17,818 bases of DNA from a virus (taxonomy: Duplodnaviria > Heunggongvirae > Uroviricota > Caudoviricetes): the IMG/VR virus record IMGVR_UViG_2713896903_000004. One strand, written 5' to 3'. The position numbers and the translations under genes were made by a program. Each line of letters opens with the position of its first letter. The stretch's first letter is position 1. Under the pieces are notes generated by a model that worked only from the letters and a program-made list of their open reading frames with translations, was not told where the DNA came from and did no database searches. Positions 1,097 through 17,674 of this stretch are shown here, piece after piece.

Positions 1097-2272
1097 ATGG
1101 ATATAACTTGTTTAGAATGTGGCAATGTTCTTGACGACCCAACTGTAGCTTGCGATAAATGCGGTGCCACGCCTCATGTTGTAGTGCTGGGCAAACAATC
1201 GTACTTTCCTATTGGTGCTGTAACAGCAAATCTTGAAAAAAATGATTCAAGAGCATTTGATTATCGATTAGGTGAAGTTTGGGATCTAAAAAATGAAGTC
1301 ACATCTGAATTCATAACCAGAATTGAGAAAAAATTTAGCCGAAAAAACAAATTTCATAACTTCCTAGACTCAGATCACAACCCTTCATCCATTCCTACGA
1401 TCCTAAAAAAATACATTAATAAAAATAATGAATTCATTGATTTATCTAGAGCTATAATAGAGAGGCTTAAACATAATGCTAATAACGAATCGAGAGTTGC
1501 CCAACTTCAGGGGGGGAGCGTTGTTTTCATCCACTATAAGTCTACCGAACCAGAGGATTTGGGGAAACTTCTAATCGTAATGGTTGATAAACAAAGCGCC
1601 TATGACTTTGATTCGGATAAGTTGACCCCAACAAGATTAAATCCAATTAATACCGATGCCTTACGGCAGGCTGCGATGTTCGATTTAACTTTATTCGAAG
1701 CCAGTTATCCAGAAAACAAGGGTGACTCATATGTACATTTCTTGCAAGGTAAATCTAAAAGCGATTTTTTCAAAGACTCATTAGGTTGCCGACATGATTC
1801 GGACAATAAAAGAAGCATTCAGCAATTATTCAGTGCTATAGATATTTTTGCTAGTAAAAACTCACTCGGTCGTGTACTGCGTGATACTATTGACAATGAA
1901 GTTAAATCCTTACTGGAAAAAAAATCAAAAGATAAACACGGAAATAAGTCCGTTAAGATAGAGGATATTTCAAAAATAATTGACTCATGCCTGACTGATT
2001 CACACAAATGTAAGGGAACGTTTGTCGATTTTGTTAATCTTAATGGTTTCCAGATTGACCCTCAATTTGAACCAACTCCTAAAGCAGCTGAAAGCGCGCT
2101 TACAATTGAAGTGGCAGATAACGACAATAATTTTAAGTTGAAAATAATGCGTGGAGCTATTGGAGACGAAAAGTCAAATAAGCCTGTAATTCTCACTGAC
2201 AACAAATGCGAAATTGTGATAAAATTGAGTCAGGCAAATTATGATGAACTCAAAAGATATAGAGACAGCTAA
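1097..2272 (+). CDS. Hypothetical protein with N-terminal C4 zinc ribbon; possible NdpA/YejK-like (nucleoid-associated) central region
   Basis: 391-aa ORF in an AT-rich block. CxxC...CxxC at residues 5, 8, 19, 22 (CLECGNVLDDPTVACDKCG). The central segment (GGSVVFIHYKS..., YVHFLQGKSKSDFF) resembles my recollection of the YejK/NdpA family but is unverified. Stop TAA is 2 nt before the next ATG. Confidence 0.8.
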   Translation: MDITCLECGNVLDDPTVACDKCGATPHVVVLGKQSYFPIGAVTANLEKNDSRAFDYRLGEVWDLKNEVTSEFITRIEKKFSRKNKFHNFLDSDHNPSSIPTILKKYINKNNEFIDLSRAIIERLKHNANNESRVAQLQGGSVVFIHYKSTEPEDLGKLLIVMVDKQSAYDFDSDKLTPTRLNPINTDALRQAAMFDLTLFEASYPENKGDSYVHFLQGKSKSDFFKDSLGCRHDSDNKRSIQQLFSAIDIFASKNSLGRVLRDTIDNEVKSLLEKKSKDKHGNKSVKIEDISKIIDSCLTDSHKCKGTFVDFVNLNGFQIDPQFEPTPKAAESALTIEVADNDNNFKLKIMRGAIGDEKSNKPVILTDNKCEIVIKLSQANYDELKRYRDS

Positions 2273-2274
2273 TA

Positions 2275-3489
2275 ATGACAATTGCTGATGACTTATCAAG
2301 ATTAGCGCAGATTATTAACGGAGCCTCAAGCAGAGTTGAGGGCTACTACACTGTCATAAGTCTTGAAGAAAGCATTGTTATTGTAAATAGTTCTGAAATA
2401 ATTAGACTGTTACAATCTATAGGTTATAAAAAGGCAACAACCTGCATCGAAAATAATGAAATTTGGCTAGATCGCCAAGCTTCATCTTGGGATGACGCTA
2501 TAATTTATGAGAATGTTGAGTCTTTTTGGTCTAGAGTAAACACCCAAAACGCTCTTCCGAAAAATTATATCATCGGAACGCCGTTAATACTCCCTACTTC
2601 TAAGAATGAAAGCATCGAAAAAATCCATATTTTCTTTATGTGGAAAGATATCCTTTCATTAATTGCTGATCATCATAACAGTGACTGCTCTGTCTTATTT
2701 TTCACCAATGAAGACAAAAGTTATACAGTCGAACTCACGCATTTTTTACAATATAGCGAGATTAATCGCTTATCGAACTCGTCTCTTAAATATGAAATTA
2801 TAAAGGAGCTTCTCGACACAATAAAAATCAATGATTTACACAAAAGCGAGCGCAAGCTCGTTATACGCTCAGCCATAAACGAAGTATTTAAAGCAAATGG
2901 TACGTTCAATTTCTTTGACTTGCTTAACTCTACTGAACTCGTCAGGAAAAAATATGATGAACTATATGAGATTTACACAAAGAGGTTTTCTGTAAATAAA
3001 ATTCTTAACGAACTCGATGAGAAAAATCTTGAGTTCACGAGTAAAATTAACGAATTCATATCATCTAATCAGACAAAAGCATTGACTATTCCCGGTGCAT
3101 TAATAGCAGCTGGTGGCTTAGTGAAGGCTAATGAAACAACCGAAGCAATATTGATTATCGCAGGACTTTGGATGATAAAAAAAGTCAATTACATTTCTAT
3201 TGAGATATTCAATGAAACATTCGACAACTTACGTTCTCGAGTGGAGTCCGCTTTCGATAAGTATTTAAAGTTTGAAGAAAATAAAGAAATCAAAGATAAT
3301 GCAGATAGTATTAAGAGTAGCATTACAGGTTTGATTGATAAAGCTAAAAAAAGGATGAGAACTGTTAAATATCTCGCATCAGCCATGTTTTATGGAGGCC
3401 TTATTTACGTTGGATATAAGCAGTTCCCAGTCTTTTTTGAAAAATCGGCAGTAAATCTATTTTATTTTTTATGCCATACTATAAGCTAA
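2275..3489 (+). CDS. Hypothetical protein with C-terminal hydrophobic (possibly membrane-inserting) segments
   Basis: 404-aa ORF translationally coupled to the upstream gene. Hydrophobic stretches LTIPGALIAAGGLV, AILIIAGLWMI and LASAMFYGGLIYVGY in the last third. No recognisable catalytic motif. Its last 21 nt overlap the 3' end of Q on the other strand. Confidence 0.8.
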   Translation: MTIADDLSRLAQIINGASSRVEGYYTVISLEESIVIVNSSEIIRLLQSIGYKKATTCIENNEIWLDRQASSWDDAIIYENVESFWSRVNTQNALPKNYIIGTPLILPTSKNESIEKIHIFFMWKDILSLIADHHNSDCSVLFFTNEDKSYTVELTHFLQYSEINRLSNSSLKYEIIKELLDTIKINDLHKSERKLVIRSAINEVFKANGTFNFFDLLNSTELVRKKYDELYEIYTKRFSVNKILNELDEKNLEFTSKINEFISSNQTKALTIPGALIAAGGLVKANETTEAILIIAGLWMIKKVNYISIEIFNETFDNLRSRVESAFDKYLKFEENKEIKDNADSIKSSITGLIDKAKKRMRTVKYLASAMFYGGLIYVGYKQFPVFFEKSAVNLFYFLCHTIS

Positions 3490-3825
3490 CATTGCTAAAC
3501 AGCCGTCAACAAACCCCATTGCAGTTTGCAGTTCCTTCCTAATTGTGCCATCAGAGCATTTTCTCTTCTTCGCAATAGTGCGTAATGAGATACCGATAAC
3601 AAAGTGGGCGATGATGAGCTCATATTCCTCTGGTTTATACCTTCTCAACCGAGCCACACAACTGTCTATCATGATGCCTTCATCATCATCGCACTGGAGA
3701 CGTGACTTTTTACCGTGTGGTAGAAGCCCCTTGAAACCAGCCGCTATCGGCTGCCAGTCGACACCACTATTTTCTGCTGCAGCCCAAGCCCCCCAACGAT
3801 CTAAAACTTCGTACATATCACGCAT
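3469..3825 (-). CDS. Late-gene antiterminator Q (small QuuD-type Q family)
   Basis: 118-aa ORF MRDMYEVLDRWGAWAA...IAAGFKGL...CSDGTIRKELQ matches my memory of the DLP12 QuuD-type Q family. GGAGG about 10 nt upstream of the ATG. Positioned between replication genes and the lysis cassette. Confidence 0.75.
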   Translation of the reverse strand: MRDMYEVLDRWGAWAAAENSGVDWQPIAAGFKGLLPHGKKSRLQCDDDEGIMIDSCVARLRRYKPEEYELIIAHFVIGISLRTIAKKRKCSDGTIRKELQTAMGFVDGCLAMLAYSMA

Positions 3826-4082
3826 CAGCGCAGTACCTCCTGCACCAGTTTTTCAAACTTTCCAACTTTGGTTTCCAGCTCTGCCACACAATCAACGAGC
3901 TCATCCACCGCTTTTTGTGCGCGATGTTTCGCCTGCATCAGTTCCCTGAGCGCTGGCACCATATCCCGACGAATGGCATCTTTTGTTACACCTGTTTTTT
4001 CCAGTTGTTCCGCCTGTCGCAACATTTCCTGTGCCTGTTTACGTAGTTGTTCAGGGGTAAAAGTCATTGTCTGGTTGTTCAA
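3825..4082 (-). CDS. Hypothetical coiled-coil protein (nin-region position)
   Basis: 85-aa ORF rich in E/K/R/Q heptad-like sequence. TTG start overlaps the DnaB stop (TTGA) with GGAG upstream; an alternative ATG lies at 4067. Its stop overlaps the Q start by 1 nt. Confidence 0.55.
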   Translation of the reverse strand: MNNQTMTFTPEQLRKQAQEMLRQAEQLEKTGVTKDAIRRDMVPALRELMQAKHRAQKAVDELVDCVAELETKVGKFEKLVQEVLR

Positions 4083-5470
4083 AAGAAACGCTCCATCTTA
4101 CTGCTGTCAGTTCGTTTGTTGCTGTATCTGCGCGGCTGGGGCTGCTGCATTGGGGTGGAAAGAATCTGTGCGCTTTCCTGATCCACAGGCAGAAAATGTC
4201 CGTTATAAAAACGCCGGTAAATCGTCCCCAGAGAACCGTTACGTTGTTTCGTGATATTGATTTCTGCTATGCCCCGGGCCTGCGTATCCGGGTTGTACAC
4301 TTCATCCCTGTAAAGCATCAGAATGATGTCTGCATCCGCCTCTATTTCTCCGGAATTTTTCAGGTCTGAGTTCATGGGGCGTTTATTGGGTCTGGACTCC
4401 ACACCACGGGAGAGCTGGCTCAGCGCAATTAAGGGAAAACCACCGGATTTTGCCAGGCCTTTAAGCCCCTTTGAGATTTCACCCACGGCAAGGTCATGAC
4501 GCCCCGTGGTTCGGGTTTTTATCAGCCCGAGATAATCAACCACCACCAGCGCCGTTTCCGGATATTTAATCAGGTGGTGTTTCGTTGTTGCGCATATCTC
4601 GTCAATGGTCAGGTTCGCCTGGTCCACCATCCAGATATTGCGCCCGGTCATCCGCCCCACCCCTTGTGAGAAACGCGCCCAGTCTTCGTCTTCAAAGTGA
4701 GCGACAGATTTCAGACGTGATACCGGCATTCCTCCAGCCGCAGATACCATGCGCTCACCAATCTGGATGTTCGCCATTTCCATTGTGAACAGAAGAACAC
4801 CATGCCCCTGCTCAGTCACCTTGTCGATGATATCCAGCGCCAGTTCAGTTTTGCCCATTGACGGACGAGCCGCAATAAATACCAGGTCGCCGGGCTCCAT
4901 GCCGCCTGTTTTTGCGTCCAGTTCATCAATACCGGTCATCAACGTCCTGGATTTCTCCAGCCCCTGATTCCGGCATTCAACACGCTCAACCACTTCCGGA
5001 AGCACATCATCAATATGTACCGGCTGAATAACGCCCTTTTCCGTCGACAATGAGGCCATCATGTTCTGCGCATCCTTCAGGGCATCTTCAGCTGCTTCAC
5101 AGGTATGCGCATCACGTAATTTCTGCAACGCCTCATTCAGTGTTTTTTCTGCATCACGCAATGCGGCATTGCGACGCAACGCTGCAACATAGTGCTCCAG
5201 TGAAGACTTCACCCAGGTTTTACGCCCGGTATCAGTAATCACCGGAGCAAGTTCCGGCATCTCATTGCACAGCAGCACAGGATCAATCACACCTGAAACA
5301 CGAGCCTGTCTGCAGATGCCTGTGTAGATATCCCGATACGCTCGTACAGAAAAAACGTCCGCCGGTAGTGTGGCCAGAATATCCATCACTTCATGATCTG
5401 CCCCTCGCAGAAAAAACGCGCCAATGACAGCGCCTTCCAGGTCATCGTTACGCCAGACAGGAGAAGTCAT
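4079..5470 (-). CDS. Replicative DNA helicase, DnaB family
   Basis: 463-aa ORF with Walker A ARPSMGKT and typical DnaB C-terminal RecA-like motifs (LVVVDYLGLI, ALSQLSR). ATGA overlap with the upstream loader gene. Confidence 0.9.
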   Translation of the reverse strand: MTSPVWRNDDLEGAVIGAFFLRGADHEVMDILATLPADVFSVRAYRDIYTGICRQARVSGVIDPVLLCNEMPELAPVITDTGRKTWVKSSLEHYVAALRRNAALRDAEKTLNEALQKLRDAHTCEAAEDALKDAQNMMASLSTEKGVIQPVHIDDVLPEVVERVECRNQGLEKSRTLMTGIDELDAKTGGMEPGDLVFIAARPSMGKTELALDIIDKVTEQGHGVLLFTMEMANIQIGERMVSAAGGMPVSRLKSVAHFEDEDWARFSQGVGRMTGRNIWMVDQANLTIDEICATTKHHLIKYPETALVVVDYLGLIKTRTTGRHDLAVGEISKGLKGLAKSGGFPLIALSQLSRGVESRPNKRPMNSDLKNSGEIEADADIILMLYRDEVYNPDTQARGIAEINITKQRNGSLGTIYRRFYNGHFLPVDQESAQILSTPMQQPQPRRYSNKRTDSSKMERFF

Positions 5471-6345
5471 GCTGCCATACCTCTGATACGAGAACGATAG
5501 CTGGGCCAGTTAAACGACAACCAGTTGCGTCCCCCGTCTGTGATCCTGTCGGCAATGCGGGGGCTGATGAATGCCCACAACTCTTCCGGTGAAAGGTTGC
5601 TGATCAGGATGGTGGGCAGGATGCTTTCGTACCGGGCATTGATAATTTCCTGCAAAATAGCCATTTCAGCCGCGCTGCCAAACTGAACACCAACTTCGTC
5701 GATGATCAGCAAATCCATTGACGCATAATGCTCAATAACTTCATCCGCTGTTTTTTCGCTGTCATTCCGCCAGCAGTTTTTCACAGCACGGGTAAGGCGC
5801 ATCACGTCGGTGATCTCCACACTGGCCAGATAGTTACGGATGATGTGTTTTGCCATTGATACCGCCAGATGATTTTTCCCGGTTCCGCAACTACCAGTCA
5901 TAACAAGACTGGTACCGTTCTCCAGCATATCTGGCCAGTTCTCCGCATAGCGGCGACAGGCCGCAAGATTTCTGGCTGCGTCAGGATTAACCTCCAGATA
6001 ATTATCAAACTCGCAGTCCCGAAAACGCAGGGCAATTCCGGCGTTATCAGTCAGCTCTTCCGCCTTGAGGGACGACAGCTCCATGGTCAAATCGTTGGCC
6101 TCAGCGATCAAGCAGTCAGGGCAGCATGAAATTTTTTCTCTGTCCTCGCCATTACGATCGCTCCACACCAGTATATGCGTACTGTATTTACCGTGTTTTT
6201 CGCAATATCCGCGGCCTTCACGCATCAGGCAGGAACGATAAGGCCATGGCTTTTCGCCCTTCTGAGCAAATGCAATCTCTGCCCGTAACTCATCCATTCG
6301 CGCCTGTAGTCTTTTTTGTTGTTCACGCAGGTTAAACGTCATCAT
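5467..6345 (-). CDS. DnaC-like helicase loader (IstB-type AAA+ ATPase) with N-terminal Cys cluster
   Basis: Walker A GSCGTGKNHL and Walker B LLIIDEVG. N-terminal CEKHG...CCPDC. I prefer the ATG at 6345 (SD GAGGTGA 5 nt upstream) over the track's GTG at 6354. Confidence 0.85.
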   Translation of the reverse strand: MMTFNLREQQKRLQARMDELRAEIAFAQKGEKPWPYRSCLMREGRGYCEKHGKYSTHILVWSDRNGEDREKISCCPDCLIAEANDLTMELSSLKAEELTDNAGIALRFRDCEFDNYLEVNPDAARNLAACRRYAENWPDMLENGTSLVMTGSCGTGKNHLAVSMAKHIIRNYLASVEITDVMRLTRAVKNCWRNDSEKTADEVIEHYASMDLLIIDEVGVQFGSAAEMAILQEIINARYESILPTILISNLSPEELWAFISPRIADRITDGGRNWLSFNWPSYRSRIRGMAA

Positions 6346-6355
6346 CGCTGTCACC

Positions 6356-7180
6356 TCAGAATGTCAGTTTGTCACTGGATTTACCGAATTTGTCAGACAT
6401 GGCTCCCAGGCCAGCCAGGACATCGACCTGTCGCTGTCGCCCACCTCCGGGAGCGGCTGGCTGTTGCCAGAATTCTTCGAAGTGACGATCGGGTCCAAAG
6501 AACGTCGCAGCCTGCTTCACGAACTGTGTGCCGGTATTTCCTGTAGCACGTACCCAGGCGGCATACCGCTTCACGCCATCAAGCATGGTCTCCGGTTTTA
6601 TTCCCTCCCTGAGACGGGCTTTCCAGGCTTTGAAGGCTGCCGACTTGGAATTGCCACCAGCACGTTTGGGATATTCCTGCCAGGCCTGTTCAAATTCCGG
6701 TGAATATTCCTGTCGGGCAGAGCGCGCTGGTGCAGACGCGTCAGCGGGTGCGCCAATTGTTGGTTCATTGACTGGTTCTTTGACTGGTTCAAAAGAGTGA
6801 CTGGTTCTGGGTGAATCTCCTGCACTACCCCCTGGTGCAACTCCTGCACCACCTGGTGAATTTGCTGCACTAGGTAGTGAATTATTTGCACTACCACCTG
6901 GTGAATCTTTTGCACCATCAAGACGAAGAAGATAAATATTGCTCGAGTTCCCTTTTTCACCTTTCCGGGAAACTTTTTTTACCAGTCCCGATTCACAAAG
7001 AGCCGTAATATGATTCATCACAGAACGTTTGCTAATCTCGCACTGATCAGCAATATGCTGATAGCTGGGCCAGCACTCGCCCTGATCGCTGGCATTATCA
7101 GCCAGCTTAATCAGAACCAGTTTTCGCAACGGATTTCCCACGCGAATTTTCATCGCTTTCACCATCAGCTCCATGCTCAT
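6356..7180 (-). CDS. Replication initiator (O-like; N-terminal winged-helix, repetitive linker, C-terminal domain)
   Basis: 274-aa ORF. N-terminal HTH-like region (SYQHIADQCEISKRSVMNHITALCESGLV). A low-complexity Gly/Ser/Pro/Ala linker is encoded by the iteron DNA. GGAGG upstream. Precedes the DnaC/DnaB-like genes as in lambdoid replication modules. Confidence 0.7.
   Translation of the reverse strand: MSMELMVKAMKIRVGNPLRKLVLIKLADNASDQGECWPSYQHIADQCEISKRSVMNHITALCESGLVKKVSRKGEKGNSSNIYLLRLDGAKDSPGGSANNSLPSAANSPGGAGVAPGGSAGDSPRTSHSFEPVKEPVNEPTIGAPADASAPARSARQEYSPEFEQAWQEYPKRAGGNSKSAAFKAWKARLREGIKPETMLDGVKRYAAWVRATGNTGTQFVKQAATFFGPDRHFEEFWQQPAAPGGGRQRQVDVLAGLGAMSDKFGKSSDKLTF
6761..6916. repeat. 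Iteron array inside the initiator gene (putative origin of replication)
   Basis: Three copies of TGACTGGTTC (6769-6778, 6781-6790, 6799-6808), then about five tandem ~21-bp units of the form GGTGAAT-N-TGCAC-N-CCT (6810-6916). A more AT-rich stretch follows at ~6920-6990. Confidence 0.55.
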
Positions 7181-7401
7181 AACACACCTCCCAGGCGTTT
7201 AAACATTTTTCCGGACTGAAACACCACCAGTGGGTAACTGATGGTGTAGTTACGCCCCAGTAATTCACACACGACTTTCTGGCTTTCGGTGCTGACCAGG
7301 CAAACCCGCAGAACGTGACCGTTGCTGGTGGCGAACCACTGCCCCACACGGGGGCAACGGTTGTATCGGTGATACAGGGAATTAACGACGCGGCGAATCA
7401 T
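7177..7401 (-). CDS. Hypothetical small protein (74 aa, Cys-containing) immediately upstream of the initiator gene
   Basis: ATG at 7401 with strong SD GGGAGGTG 7 nt upstream. ATGA overlaps with both the upstream 220-aa gene stop and the initiator start. The track's longer 79-aa version lacks an RBS. Confidence 0.5.
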   Translation of the reverse strand: MIRRVVNSLYHRYNRCPRVGQWFATSNGHVLRVCLVSTESQKVVCELLGRNYTISYPLVVFQSGKMFKRLGGVL

Positions 7402-8060
7402 GGGCGCACCTCCCATTGATTACGGCGGAAAGCGGTGTGACTGAGACTGGTTTCAGTTTCATGGAATGCTTCAATGCAGCTCTCGTAGTACCGCATTGTG
7501 CGCAGACTTAACCCAAGCTGAAGCATCATCAGGCCATCAAGGGTGATGTAATAACCACGCAGGGAGTCACCATAGATGTGATAAGTACCCGGTATGAAAT
7601 TGCGGGTAAAAAATTCGCGCGAGCAGTTCAGATACTCGATTTTGTCGACGATGTTCTGGTGCATGCGCTTGAAATGGCAGGCAACATGCAGGGAGAAAAT
7701 AACGGCCTTGCCGTTGACGACTTCGATTTTCAGGTATGGGGAAGTTGGGACAGTAGCCATGATGGCAGCCTCCTTGATCGGTGAAATACTTCCACCACCG
7801 GAAACGCCAATTTCGCTGGTGGTGAACTGAACGGGGTTGGCGTAACCGGTGATCAAGGAAACCGGCGCATCTTTCGATGCCCCCGCCCAGCCCACCATAA
7901 CTTTGATGTGAGCAAATGCGGACGATAAAAAAGACGCTGGCGCGTCATATATCGCCTTGATCAATTCCAGGACGCCAATCCCGGCACCCGCTTTATAAGG
8001 TGCAGAGACAGTGTAACGTCCCGAAATTGCAGAATCAATATTTAGGATTGAAACATTCAT
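7398..8060 (-). CDS. Hypothetical protein (220 aa) occupying the cII slot
   Basis: 663-nt ORF in ~50% GC DNA, co-oriented and coupled with the downstream early genes. No recognisable HTH or catalytic motif. Weak RBS at the annotated ATG. Confidence 0.6.
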   Translation of the reverse strand: MNVSILNIDSAISGRYTVSAPYKAGAGIGVLELIKAIYDAPASFLSSAFAHIKVMVGWAGASKDAPVSLITGYANPVQFTTSEIGVSGGGSISPIKEAAIMATVPTSPYLKIEVVNGKAVIFSLHVACHFKRMHQNIVDKIEYLNCSREFFTRNFIPGTYHIYGDSLRGYYITLDGLMMLQLGLSLRTMRYYESCIEAFHETETSLSHTAFRRNQWEVRP

Positions 8061-14353: not shown

Positions 14354-15667
14354 ATGGATAAAGTCAAATATCCAACAGGCGTCGAAAACCACGGCGGCAC
14401 ATTACGCATCTGGTTTAATTTTAAAGGTAAACGTGTCAGGGAAAATCTTGGTGTCCCTGACACTGCCAAGAACAGGAAGATCGCCGGGGAACTACGGACA
14501 TCGGTATGTTTTGCCATCCGCACAGGAAGCTTTGATTATGCTGCACAGTTCCCTGACTCCCCTAACCTTCAGGCTTTTGGGGTAAGTAAAAAAGAAATTA
14601 CGGTGAAAGAACTTGAAGAAAAATGGCTGGATCTGAAACGAATGGAAATCTCTGCAAATGCATTCAATCGCTATGAATCCGTTGCAAGAACGATGGTTCC
14701 GAAAATTGGAGGCAGCAGACTGGTGTCATCGGTAACTAAAGAGGAATTGCTGTATATCAGGAAAGATTTGCTGACCGGGTATCAGAATTCAACGAAAAAC
14801 AAAGCAGCAGCAAAAGGACGGAGCGTCGTTACTGTAAATTATTACATGACGACAATCGCTGGAATGTTTCAGTTTGCTGCAGATCACGGTTACTTAGAAG
14901 CAAATCCCTTCCAGGGAATTAAGCCTCTTAAAAGAGCCAGGGCAGAGCCAGATCCGCTAACTCGTGACGAATTTATTCGCCTGATAGATGCTTGCCGACA
15001 TCAGCAGACGAAAAACCTGTGGTCATTGGCTGTGTACACAGGAATGCGTCACGGTGAACTGGTCTCCCTGGCCTGGGAAGATATCGATCTGAAAGCAGGA
15101 ACTATTACTATCAGGCGCAATTATACGAAACTCGGTGAGTTCACTCTACCTAAAACTGAAGCAAGTACAAACAGGGTTGTGCATCTTATCCAGCCCGCTA
15201 TCAGTGTCCTGAAAAATCAGGCTGAAATGACAAGACTGGGTAAGCAGCACCACATCAAGGTTCAACTACGTGAATATGGGCGTTCAGTGAATCATGAATG
15301 TACTTTCGTATTTAACCCCCAGGTGGTTAGAAAAAGCAAACAGGTCGGTTTTATCTACAAGGTAGATTCTATTGGCGACTCATGGGAAACAGCCATTAAG
15401 CGTGCGGGCATCAGGCACCGGAAAGCATACCAGTCACGACACACTTATGCGTGCTGGTCGTTATCTGCCGGAGCAAATCCAAGCTTCATTGCCAGCCAGA
15501 TGGGCCATGCAAGTGCCCAGATGGTGTTCAATGTATACGGAGCATGGATGACTGACAGTAATGCAGAACAGATCGCAATGCTGAATCAGAAGCTGGCAGA
15601 TTATGTCCCAATGATGCCCCATAGTCACCAAAATGGCACAAAAGGCTTATTAAAATCAGTAAGTTAA
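14354..15667 (+). CDS. int: Tyrosine integrase (lambda/Rac-type with N-terminal arm-binding domain)
   Basis: 437-aa ORF with SD GGAGG 5 nt upstream. Catalytic-domain motifs TGMRHGEL, SRHTYACW and the tyrosine region NVYGAWM. Adjacent to the host junction. Confidence 0.9.
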   Translation: MDKVKYPTGVENHGGTLRIWFNFKGKRVRENLGVPDTAKNRKIAGELRTSVCFAIRTGSFDYAAQFPDSPNLQAFGVSKKEITVKELEEKWLDLKRMEISANAFNRYESVARTMVPKIGGSRLVSSVTKEELLYIRKDLLTGYQNSTKNKAAAKGRSVVTVNYYMTTIAGMFQFAADHGYLEANPFQGIKPLKRARAEPDPLTRDEFIRLIDACRHQQTKNLWSLAVYTGMRHGELVSLAWEDIDLKAGTITIRRNYTKLGEFTLPKTEASTNRVVHLIQPAISVLKNQAEMTRLGKQHHIKVQLREYGRSVNHECTFVFNPQVVRKSKQVGFIYKVDSIGDSWETAIKRAGIRHRKAYQSRHTYACWSLSAGANPSFIASQMGHASAQMVFNVYGAWMTDSNAEQIAMLNQKLADYVPMMPHSHQNGTKGLLKSVS

Positions 15668-16150: not shown

Positions 16151-17674
16151 ATGAAACGTGCAATCAGTTACATCCGATTCAGTTCTGAGAAGCAATCCCG
16201 AGGTGATTCACTACGCCGACAATCGAAGTTGGTCACTGACTGGCTTAAAGCTCGTCCTGAGTATCATCTAGATGAATCTCTTACCTTCCGTGATTTGGGG
16301 AAAAGTGCTTTTAGCGGTAAGCACTTGAAAGGTGGCTTAGGCGACTTCTTAACCGCTATTGAGAAAGGGCTTGTAAGAGCTGGTGATACGCTCTTGATAG
16401 AGTCTCTTGACCGTCTGTCACGGCAAGATGTAGACCGAGCAAGTGAACTACTCAGAAACATCCTTCGCTCTGGTGTCGATGTGGTCACATTATCCGATAA
16501 TGAACACTACACAAAGGAATCTCTTAAAGACCCGTTAGCCTTGATTAAGTCAATCCTGATTATGCAACGAGCGCATGAGGAAAGTTTGAGGAAGTCTGAG
16601 CGTATACAGGCTGCATGGGATGCAAAGAAAGAAGCCGCTAAAGCTGGTATCAAGATTTCTAAGCGTTGCCCTGCATGGCTTAAGCTTAATAATGACCGTA
16701 AAAGTTTCTCTGTAATCCCTGAGAAGGTAGCGACGGTAAAGCGATGCTTCCAGCTACGGTTAGAGGGTAAGTCTATCTTGGAAATTGTCAGAACTCTTAA
16801 TAGTGAGGGACATCAGACGCTTAACCAGTACAAAGCGGGTAAATTTAGTCAGACTTCTGTGCAAGACCTTTTGAAGAATCGCTCTGTAATTGGTTATTTC
16901 ACCCCCAAAGGCTGTGAAGAAATTTCAAACTATTACCCCTCTATCATCCCTGAGACTGATTTCTACAAAGTCCAGCAACTATCATATCCTCGTTACGGTA
17001 GAAAACCTGCTTCAGATAAACCATTGAGTGTGAATCTTTTCAAGGGTGTTATCCGTTGTTCTGAATGTGGTCATGCTCTGATTATCACAGGCTTTAGCGA
17101 TACAAGGAACGGGATATATCGCTGCCCTCTTCGTAATGAAAACCGTTGCAGTGCTAAGGGTCTGTCACGTAAGCAAACTGATGGAACATTACTTGCTTTG
17201 CTCTCTCGTCTTGACCGATTTGAGAATGGTACAACGAATGCCATTGATACACTGAAGCTACACCGTGAACACATTTCAAACAATATTGAGAAGCTGGTAC
17301 AACTCTCACTTGAAGTCGAAGACCTGACCGCTATTACCAGCAAGTTAAAACAGTTAAAGGGGGAGTTATCACAGGTTGATGCTGATATTGAGAAGGAGGC
17401 ACAACGCCTTAAATCTATTGACGTGGGTTGTTTGTCTGATTGTGACTTGAGTACAAAGGCGGGAAGGATTGAAGCACAACTGATTATTCGTAGTGCTGTT
17501 AAAGAAGTTGTTTTAAACACTGCTAAACGTCGCTGTAGAGTAACTTTTCACAATGGCAAGGTGATTGACCTGTCGATAACAGAAAACCCCGCTCAGGACA
17601 TTACAGAGGCTGAAAAGTCGCTTACTGAAATTGCTGAGAAGGGTCTGTTAGATGTTGACGCCTTCCAACTGTAG
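16151..17674 (+). CDS. Large serine recombinase (resolvase-type catalytic domain, recombinase domain, zinc ribbon, coiled coil)
   Basis: 507-aa ORF. N-terminal ISYIRFSSEKQ...SLRRQ with the catalytic Ser in RFSS. Cys cluster CSECGH...CPLRNENRC. C-terminal coiled-coil region. Confidence 0.85.
   Translation: MKRAISYIRFSSEKQSRGDSLRRQSKLVTDWLKARPEYHLDESLTFRDLGKSAFSGKHLKGGLGDFLTAIEKGLVRAGDTLLIESLDRLSRQDVDRASELLRNILRSGVDVVTLSDNEHYTKESLKDPLALIKSILIMQRAHEESLRKSERIQAAWDAKKEAAKAGIKISKRCPAWLKLNNDRKSFSVIPEKVATVKRCFQLRLEGKSILEIVRTLNSEGHQTLNQYKAGKFSQTSVQDLLKNRSVIGYFTPKGCEEISNYYPSIIPETDFYKVQQLSYPRYGRKPASDKPLSVNLFKGVIRCSECGHALIITGFSDTRNGIYRCPLRNENRCSAKGLSRKQTDGTLLALLSRLDRFENGTTNAIDTLKLHREHISNNIEKLVQLSLEVEDLTAITSKLKQLKGELSQVDADIEKEAQRLKSIDVGCLSDCDLSTKAGRIEAQLIIRSAVKEVVLNTAKRRCRVTFHNGKVIDLSITENPAQDITEAEKSLTEIAEKGLLDVDAFQL

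Follow-up and report, generated by a model that had tools for sequence, protein, structure and literature searches.

Gene organization around the initiator

The window analysed here is the whole stretch of 17,818 nucleotides, and the gene under study occupies positions 6356..7180 on its minus strand. The product is a replication initiator of 274 aa, consisting of an N-terminal winged-helix domain, a linker encoded by repeats and a helical C-terminal domain. The coding region of the N-terminal DNA-binding domain (aa 1-88; 6917..7180, minus strand) was delimited by alignment and by a match to Pfam HTH_36 (PF13730), which covers aa 17-67 with 43.6 bits against a cut-off of 25. The recognition helix was placed at about aa 49-63 (ISKRSVMNHITALCE) from the alignment of N-domains. 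The C-terminal domain (aa ~141-274) is encoded at 6356..6760 on the minus strand, and is inherited apart from the N-module, as described below. The protein was assigned to PHROG 270, 'replication initiation protein', with an E-value of 1.9e-89, and its residues 147-245 matched PHROG 1701, 'DnaD-like helicase loader', with an E-value of 2.6e-37. In a single-sequence AlphaFold2 model of low confidence (mean pLDDT 40.9), aa 38-87 formed a helix-helix-hairpin and aa 88-160 were without structure. A PDB sequence search with the initiator returned nothing relevant. At the DNA level, the gene is 97.7% identical to that for 'DNA replication protein O' of phage PhiR49_2, and genes about 87% identical to it are found in SfV, cdtI, mEp460 and many Stx2 phages. 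Of 5426 complete E. coli genomes, 1230 (23%) carry it. The PGAP label of the gene is only 'helix-turn-helix domain-containing protein', and the origin is unannotated.

Two genes lie downstream on the same strand. The first, at 5467..6354 (minus strand), encodes a DnaC/IstB-like AAA+ protein (Pfam IstB_IS21, 56.3 bits, and Bac_DnaA), which is the presumed helicase loader acting in trans, and the second, at 4079..5470 (minus strand), encodes a DnaB-like replicative helicase (Pfam DnaB_C, 244.7 bits, and the DnaB N-domain) as a further trans factor. Upstream of the initiator gene are Rha/Ash-type genes, a Cro-like gene and a divergent CI/S24 repressor gene, and a Q antiterminator gene and an integrase gene are located farther away. 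Judged from this gene neighbourhood, the locus is the early-right operon of a lambdoid prophage.

Two classes of repeats inside the initiator gene

The repeat block at 6761-6916 lies inside the initiator gene and holds two differing repeat classes. The original prediction had described it as one iteron array that also encodes a low-complexity linker. The block is real. It contains three exact copies of TGACTGGTTC, at plus-strand positions 6769, 6781 and 6798 and nowhere else in the 17.8-kb window, and five exact matches of GTGMAWNNNNTGCAC, at plus-strand positions 6811, 6835, 6856, 6877 and 6901, with spacings of 24, 21, 21 and 24. It also encodes, as predicted, a Gly/Ser/Pro/Ala-rich stretch, GAKDSPGGSANNSLPSAANSPGGAGVAPGGSAGDSPRTSHSFEPVKEPVNEP, at residues ~89-140. 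The idea of a single array was retained for the 15-mers, which are lineage-specific sites, but not for the TGACTGGTTC copies, which belong to a separate core that is constant across lineages.

All five exact GTGMAWNNNNTGCAC matches of the window fall within one 105-bp stretch. When up to one mismatch was allowed, nine matches were obtained on both strands, eight of them in the block, against an expectation of 1.65 +/- 1.42, and this number was reached in none of 200 dinucleotide shuffles. In the coding orientation, the unit is GTGCA-N5-T(G/T)CAC, which is 15 bp long, dyad-symmetric and present in five copies: iteron 1 (6901..6915, GTGCAAAAGATTCAC), iteron 2 (6877..6891, GTGCAAATAATTCAC), iteron 3 (6856..6870, GTGCAGCAAATTCAC), iteron 4 (6835..6849, GTGCAGGAGTTGCAC), which is a perfect dyad, and iteron 5 (6811..6825, GTGCAGGAGATTCAC). 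The last two iterons are separated by a 9-bp spacer (6826..6834, CAGGGGGTA) carrying a G5/C5 tract, and the core always begins 2 bp after the end of iteron 5. The five units, at a spacing of 21-24 bp or about two helical turns, extend over aa 89-125. Tandem-repeat analysis, which had been proposed as a check, was successful for one class only: TRF found a 12-bp array at 6761-6791 with a score of 55, but missed the degenerate 21-24-bp array, because the whole-unit identity of the 15-mers is only 61-78% and their conservation is confined to the two 5-nt half-sites.

Iterons of the relatives and their pairing with the recognition helix

Dyad units were found in the same place in all 12 close phage relatives of the N-domain, with a sequence specific to each lineage. 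A thirteenth locus, Vibrio D80, which is 28% identical, has dyad units and lacks the core. The half-site pairs included GTGCA/TKCAC, GGGCA/TGCCC, TGCCA/TGGCA, GTGAC/GTCAC and TAGGC/GCCTA. The SfV clade shares the form of the window, GTGCA-N5-TKCAC, in five copies (eight in cdtI); Stx2a_F403 has three copies of GGGCA-N5-TGCCC, Klebsiella phi12.5 four of TGCCA-N5-TGGCA, Vibrio D160 three of GTGAY-N5-GTCAC, and ZF40 four of CTGTGC-N9-GCACAG. The peptides encoded by the units are unrelated to one another (GGSANNS, GGAGAA, PPMPSDGT, PVPPKSTA, GMAGNG and PSDKMS).

The comparison was extended to 80 loci, one per species, which were picked by the protein similarity of the N-domain only and span Gammaproteobacteria including Pseudomonas, Shewanella, Aeromonas, Marinomonas and Xenorhabdus. 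The units lie at the same offsets from the core in all lineages of this set, namely -17, -41, -62, -83/-86 and -104/-107. The unit class of the window occurs in 3-8 copies per locus with a mode of 5, and 209 of 224 intervals are 21-24 bp. The half-site class follows the recognition helix, in a correlation that ignores phylogeny and is not strictly one-to-one: (K/R)RSV(M/I)NH goes with GTG[CA]A, KR(S/T)(V/A)MRH with GTGA[CT]..GTCAC, DRSTVRKH with TAGGC, SRSTVKSH with GGGCA, RTTAINH with GT[GA]TA, and (K/H)S.VR(N/K)H with TGCC[AG]. In 77 of 83 relatives, four or more G (46) or C (31) follow one another in the spacer that separates the last two units. The G and C runs are the same duplex flipped, and encode Gly-Gly or Pro-Pro.

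The repeats could in principle be a low-complexity linker that arose by slippage at the protein level, with no cis role for the DNA. The Gly/Ser/Pro/Ala-rich composition of the encoded peptide agrees with this, as do the unstructured aa 88-160 of the low-confidence single-sequence model and the variation in copy number among close relatives, from eight units in cdtI to one in SI8. However, it is the peptide that varies by lineage, while the DNA keeps its 15-bp dyad symmetry, its register and its 21-24-bp phasing; the G5/C5 spacer flips from Gly-Gly to Pro-Pro, the half-sites covary with the recognition helix, and the third codon positions of the adjoining core are the most conserved ones. We therefore consider slippage highly improbable. 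From the fixed offsets, the phasing, the half-sites that track the helix and the flipping G/C spacer, the sequence comparisons show selection on the linker DNA itself, with the winged helix as its predicted reader. We infer that the initiator would bind the 15-mers.

In Salmonella phage SI8 (1501-2133) the core is preceded by only a single dyad unit, and in SF10 by two, although the genomes of both phages were deposited as complete. A single unit may suffice in this lineage; otherwise these phages may replicate poorly or depend on another mechanism.

A core conserved at the nucleotide level

The family-wide conserved core is located at 6774..6810 on the minus strand, 3' of the iterons, and reads CC-AGAACCAGTCAC-TCTTTT-GAACCAGTCA-AA-GAACC. 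It is a candidate unwinding or helicase-entry element, and includes TGACTGGTTC copies one and two and the beginning of copy three. It is followed at 6761..6773 (minus strand) by an extension of the 12-bp GAACCAGTCAnn repeat, made of the remainder of copy three and ATGAACCA, so that the coding strand from 6810 down to 6761 is CC-AGAACCAGTCAC-TCTTTT-GAACCAGTCA-AA-GAACCAGTCA-AT-GAACCA. The copy number of GAACCAGTCAnn differs among close relatives (four in L057, fewer in L099). The consensus of about 35 bp on the coding strand, CC-AGAAYCAGTCAC-TCTTTT-GAACCAGTCA-nn-GAACC, carries two or three GAACCAGTCA direct repeats, is near-invariant in all lineages, and is unchanged even in those whose iterons differ strongly. 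In the 80 loci, 70 have at most four mismatches to the core 27-mer and the remainder are indel variants. Exact core matches in viral contigs were in an initiator-gene context in 115 of 120 cases, and four were cut by the contig end.

It is the DNA sequence of the core that is conserved, irrespective of what it encodes. In seven diverged phage lineages, identical residues were encoded by the same codon in 118 of 118 pairwise comparisons in the core, as against 301 of 808 (37%) in the N-domain. For 76 distinct relatives selected by protein, the entropies at codon positions 1, 2 and 3 were 0.42, 0.30 and 0.26 bit in the core, where the anchor pattern constrains positions 1-12 and the third-position entropy over the free positions 13-27 is about 0.42 bit. 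The corresponding values of the N-domain were 0.62, 0.48 and 1.44 bit in the same 76 relatives, and its third positions at residues with at least 90% conservation still had 1.34 bit.

Another explanation is that the core was preserved as the recombination junction between the N- and C-modules, or for the peptide that it encodes, and not for opening of the origin. The core stands exactly at the module boundary, with unrelated C-domains directly after it and the module junction just 3' of the GAACCAGTCAnn extension, at about position 6761. The peptide (RTSHSFEPVKEP / RTSHSFEPVKEPVNEP in this window) contains the motif RTSHSFEPV, which is itself well conserved and might be functional. A junction, however, can be used only where conservation already exists. 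Third positions are conserved above first ones, and the rare codon AGA is retained in 72 of 76 loci. Residue changes of T to I, H to N and F to L/S are seen, each through a single base change, whereas synonymous changes are rarer. The two GAAYCAGTCA 10-mers are better conserved than the 6-nt TCTYYT spacer separating them, as would be expected if a binding site were repeated. Preservation as a junction or a peptide is thus unlikely, though less so than slippage is for the linker.

Several other causes of the conservation were considered and rejected. A known RNA element was ruled out, as the covariance models of Rfam 15 gave no match at E <= 1 over 6300-7500. No internal promoter or terminator was present on either strand. 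A programmed -1 frameshift at TCT-TTT-GAA, with slippage onto TTT followed by TGA, was ruled out because these positions are the least conserved of the core (0.77-0.94 bit), with the variants CTT, TCT, CCT and TTA. The core is also not an extra iteron or half-site: it is out of phase, at 14 bp from the centre of the last iteron, and stays constant when the iterons change. The GTCAC within the core matches the right half-site of the GTGAC class. A DnaA box, an IHF consensus and a GATC cluster were looked for in the core by eye, which is a weak test, and none was seen.

Separate inheritance of the two modules

A tblastn search against phage genomes revealed separate histories for aa 1-138 and aa 141-274. 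In Stx1a phages the similarity is confined to aa 141-274, with 93% identity, and in Stx2a_F403, Salmonella SF10 and SI8, Klebsiella phi12.5, Pectobacterium ZF40 and Vibrio phages to the N-part, with 53-62% identity. Stx1_499 combines the same C-domain with an N-domain that is unrelated and has repeats of its own. The fusion point is TIGASADAS, and a DnaC-like gene with 86% identity and a helicase gene come next downstream. The N-domain, the iterons and the core are inherited as one module. From the swap in Stx1_499 and the two separate histories, the C-domain travels with the DnaC-like and DnaB-like genes.

SfV, cdtI and 118970_sal3 have the same N-module and a similar C-domain with different last ~25 residues, and the DnaC-like and DnaB-like genes are absent downstream in these phages. 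Because the two differences occur together, the C-terminal tail may decide between phage-encoded and host helicase delivery.

Comparison with known replication origins

In lambda, phased initiator sites are located in the middle of gene O, and the repeat DNA encodes the interdomain linker (PMC7466680). The N-domain of O binds the origin, the C-domain recruits the helicase system, and extra iterons add residues to the protein (PMC7466680). The present locus shares with lambda ori, and with the origins of the 933W and P27 Stx phages, the position in the middle of the initiator gene and the phased dyad sites. It further shares with lambda a linker encoded by the repeats and a distinct non-iteron element 3' of the sites in the coding direction. 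The phased dyad sites lie between the coding regions of the N- and C-domains, as in the lambda-type layout, and about 80 relatives are alike in this. The division into an N-domain that goes with the ori and a C-domain that goes with the helicase-delivery partner is likewise of the lambda type. At the place of the lambda-type 3' unwinding tract there is a conserved element of 57-59% AT, which is the stability minimum of the family mean and not the local minimum of the window.

The differences from lambda are also clear. O has a Phage_rep_O N-domain, whereas the present initiator has HTH_36; the units are 19 bp in lambda and 15 bp (5+5+5) here; lambda has a strongly AT-rich, purine-asymmetric tract in place of the direct-repeat core of 58% AT; and the partner is lambda P there and DnaC-like plus DnaB-like proteins here. 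The initiator did not match Pfam PF04492 (Phage_rep_O) at E <= 0.01, while P22 gp18, used as a positive control, scored 129.5 bits, and the profile-profile probability from hhalign was 3.3%. Membership of the lambda O family was ruled out on these grounds, so that by sequence comparison the initiator is lambda O-like in its architecture only. The term 'O-like' of the original prediction holds in that restricted sense. Its parallel to lambda, in which an array of initiator sites within the initiator's own gene encodes what would be a passive linker, has strong comparative support, with three details corrected.

P22 is comparable in that its annotated rep_origin lies 352-496 nt into gene 18, a DnaB-like helicase gene (gene 12) is located downstream, and the iterons are followed by two copies of the short direct repeat ACAAAAGACAATA. 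It differs in that gp18 is a true Phage_rep_O member, a DnaC-like gene is absent, and the iterons TCGGTAAA...TTTACCGA and the AT-rich tract are unrelated in sequence to those described here. At P22 4841-4985, GAATCAGTCAA directly follows the last iteron and is an 11-nt match to the core-repeat variant GAAYCAGTCAA; this match partly overlaps a P22 iteron and may be due to chance.

Dimer-binding inverted repeats are used as operators by plasmid Rep proteins such as RepE and pPS10 RepA. The dyads could accordingly be operator sites by which the early operon is autoregulated, or act as a roadblock to transcription, with the true origin elsewhere in the prophage. Intragenic sites could serve autoregulation instead of or alongside initiation, and the local AT-richness is weak. 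Against this, the sites are about 270-370 bp into the coding region and nothing resembling a promoter was seen near them, five phased copies with an adjoining repeat core correspond to the origin architecture of lambda and P22, and a swap of the helicase module leaves the array with the N-domain. An operator array with a distant origin thus appears improbable, and the reading as an origin is preferred.

Plasmid iterons are direct repeats outside the rep gene, and are bound by Rep monomers of the WH1-WH2 fold. The present locus resembles iteron plasmids (RK2 oriV/TrfA, F/RepE and P1, whose unwinding elements are 13-mer repeats) in that the initiator sites adjoin an unwinding region of short direct repeats, and differs from them in having dyad units within the gene. 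Pfam gave no Rep_3-type domain for the initiator. The unwinding elements of RK2 oriV and oriC are built of repeats, and their exact sequence matters, not AT content alone (PMC5043065). A likeness to the DnaD-type primosomal proteins was indicated by the PHROG 1701 match of the C-domain and by a sub-threshold winged-helix match of the N-domain; the latter scored 24.3 bits with the DnaD N-terminal domain (PF21984), below the gathering cut-off of 27. DnaD is not known to have an iteron array within its own gene. In the searchable literature we found no experiment on this origin type, no description of it and no quotation of its repeats; an earlier mention in a review of phage replication modules is possible.

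Duplex stability and polarity

The original prediction had placed an AT-rich flank on the 5' side in the coding orientation, and had taken the polarity to be opposite to that of lambda. The wing (KGEKGNSSNIYLLRLD) is encoded by the flank at 6917..6980, which has a moderately high AT content (62-65%) and is a second-line candidate for the unwinding site. Within +/-800 bp, only two 30-bp stretches are less stable than 6929-6958, which in this window also ranks below the core in stability; the core, with 58% AT, is outside the ten least stable 30-bp stretches. Across the family, the AT content of the flank varies with the composition of the host (0.50 to 0.66), and AT is hardly enriched at its third positions (0.48), whereas the AT content of the core is 0.57-0.59 whatever the host GC content. 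Averaged over 86 loci in 30-bp stretches, the minimum of duplex stability was on the core, at +4.3 to +5.0 kcal/mol above the locus mean, with a lower shoulder of +3.0 kcal/mol over the wing-coding DNA 5' of the iterons. Because the core is not among the ten least stable stretches of the window, its role as the melting site is one that we infer. The 5' flank is less likely than the core to be the opening site. In the coding direction, the conserved element that is not an iteron follows the iterons on their 3' side, and the polarity of the origin is probably the same as in lambda. The AT-rich flank is thus present as predicted, but the opposite polarity is not upheld.

Short direct repeats directly after the iterons were also seen in three other N-module types, those of Stx1_499 (12-bp, CAGAGAATACAA-type), Vibrio D80 (TCCTAACAGTAT twice) and P22 (ACAAAAGACAATA twice), and are reminiscent of the unwinding elements of oriC and RK2. 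In Stx1_499 (2325-2357 and 2451-2495) and Vibrio D80 (1760-1907), dyad repeats are followed by two to four 12-bp direct repeats and then by the junction to the C-domain. This order, dyads and then direct repeats, suggests a general rule for two-domain phage initiators.

A proposed mechanism of initiation

The layout matches the rep_origin in P22 gene 18 and lambda ori, and together with the comparative evidence it indicates that 6761-6916 is very probably a lambdoid prophage replication origin with initiator-bound iterons, embedded in its own initiator gene. After induction, dimers of the initiator would bind the five iterons through the winged helix, and the bound dimers would assemble into a phased nucleoprotein structure comparable to the lambda O-some. 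Stress arising from this structure would open the adjacent core or, less likely, the AT-rich flank on the 5' side. The C-domain would then bring the phage DnaC-like loader and DnaB-like helicase, and the Gly/Ser/Pro/Ala peptide would act as a passive tether between the two domains.

For the core as the site of opening or helicase entry, the comparative evidence leaves our expectation evenly balanced. A more specific proposal, which we make tentatively, is that CC-AGAAYCAGTCAC-TCTYYT-GAAYCAGTCA-nn-GAACC is an opening or helicase-entry element that depends on sequence and not on composition and is common to a very large family of gammaproteobacterial prophages. In this proposal the first ~45 residues of the N-domain, which are invariant, would recognise the element, or it would be captured in single-stranded form, while swappable iterons and helices would set the specificity and swappable C-domains the helicase system. 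If this is true, the origin would be a three-part plug-and-play device with a universal core fixed through the third codon positions of the initiator gene. This architecture of specificity iterons, universal core and swappable helicase-recruiting domain appears to be unannotated and undescribed. The design of the origin is familiar, but it is built here on a different initiator family and with a 35-bp core whose DNA sequence is kept in many bacteria.

Relatives of the locus are present in viable phages, including SfV, cdtI, mEp460 and the Stx2a and Stx2c converting phages, and in prophages of Pseudomonas, Aeromonas, Shewanella, Vibrio, Xenorhabdus and others. A recognised origin would be a defined cis element through which Shiga-toxin and serotype-converting phages could be studied or blocked in their replication. 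From the naturally occurring combinations of recognition helix and half-site, a winged-helix DNA-recognition code could be worked out. The core is a clear example of a gene segment in which a DNA signal prevails over synonymous drift, and makes the sequence-dependence of unwinding elements testable through synonymous recoding.

Other genes in the window

Two genes at 1097-3489 (plus strand) are convergent to the Q antiterminator gene (3469-3825, minus strand). The first encodes a homologue of the NA37 nucleoid-associated protein (391 aa, Pfam 85.6 bits), and the adjoining second gene encodes a protein of 404 aa with no match in Pfam or PADLOC. PADLOC likewise gave zero matches for the neighbouring cargo genes. 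The NA37 homologue and the 404-aa protein may be prophage cargo or a defence pair. At 14354-15667 and 16151-17674 (plus strand), a gene for a tyrosine integrase with an Arm-DNA-binding domain is closely followed by one for a large serine recombinase (507 aa). The presence of two different site-specific recombinases at one prophage end may reflect a second element or a nested insertion.
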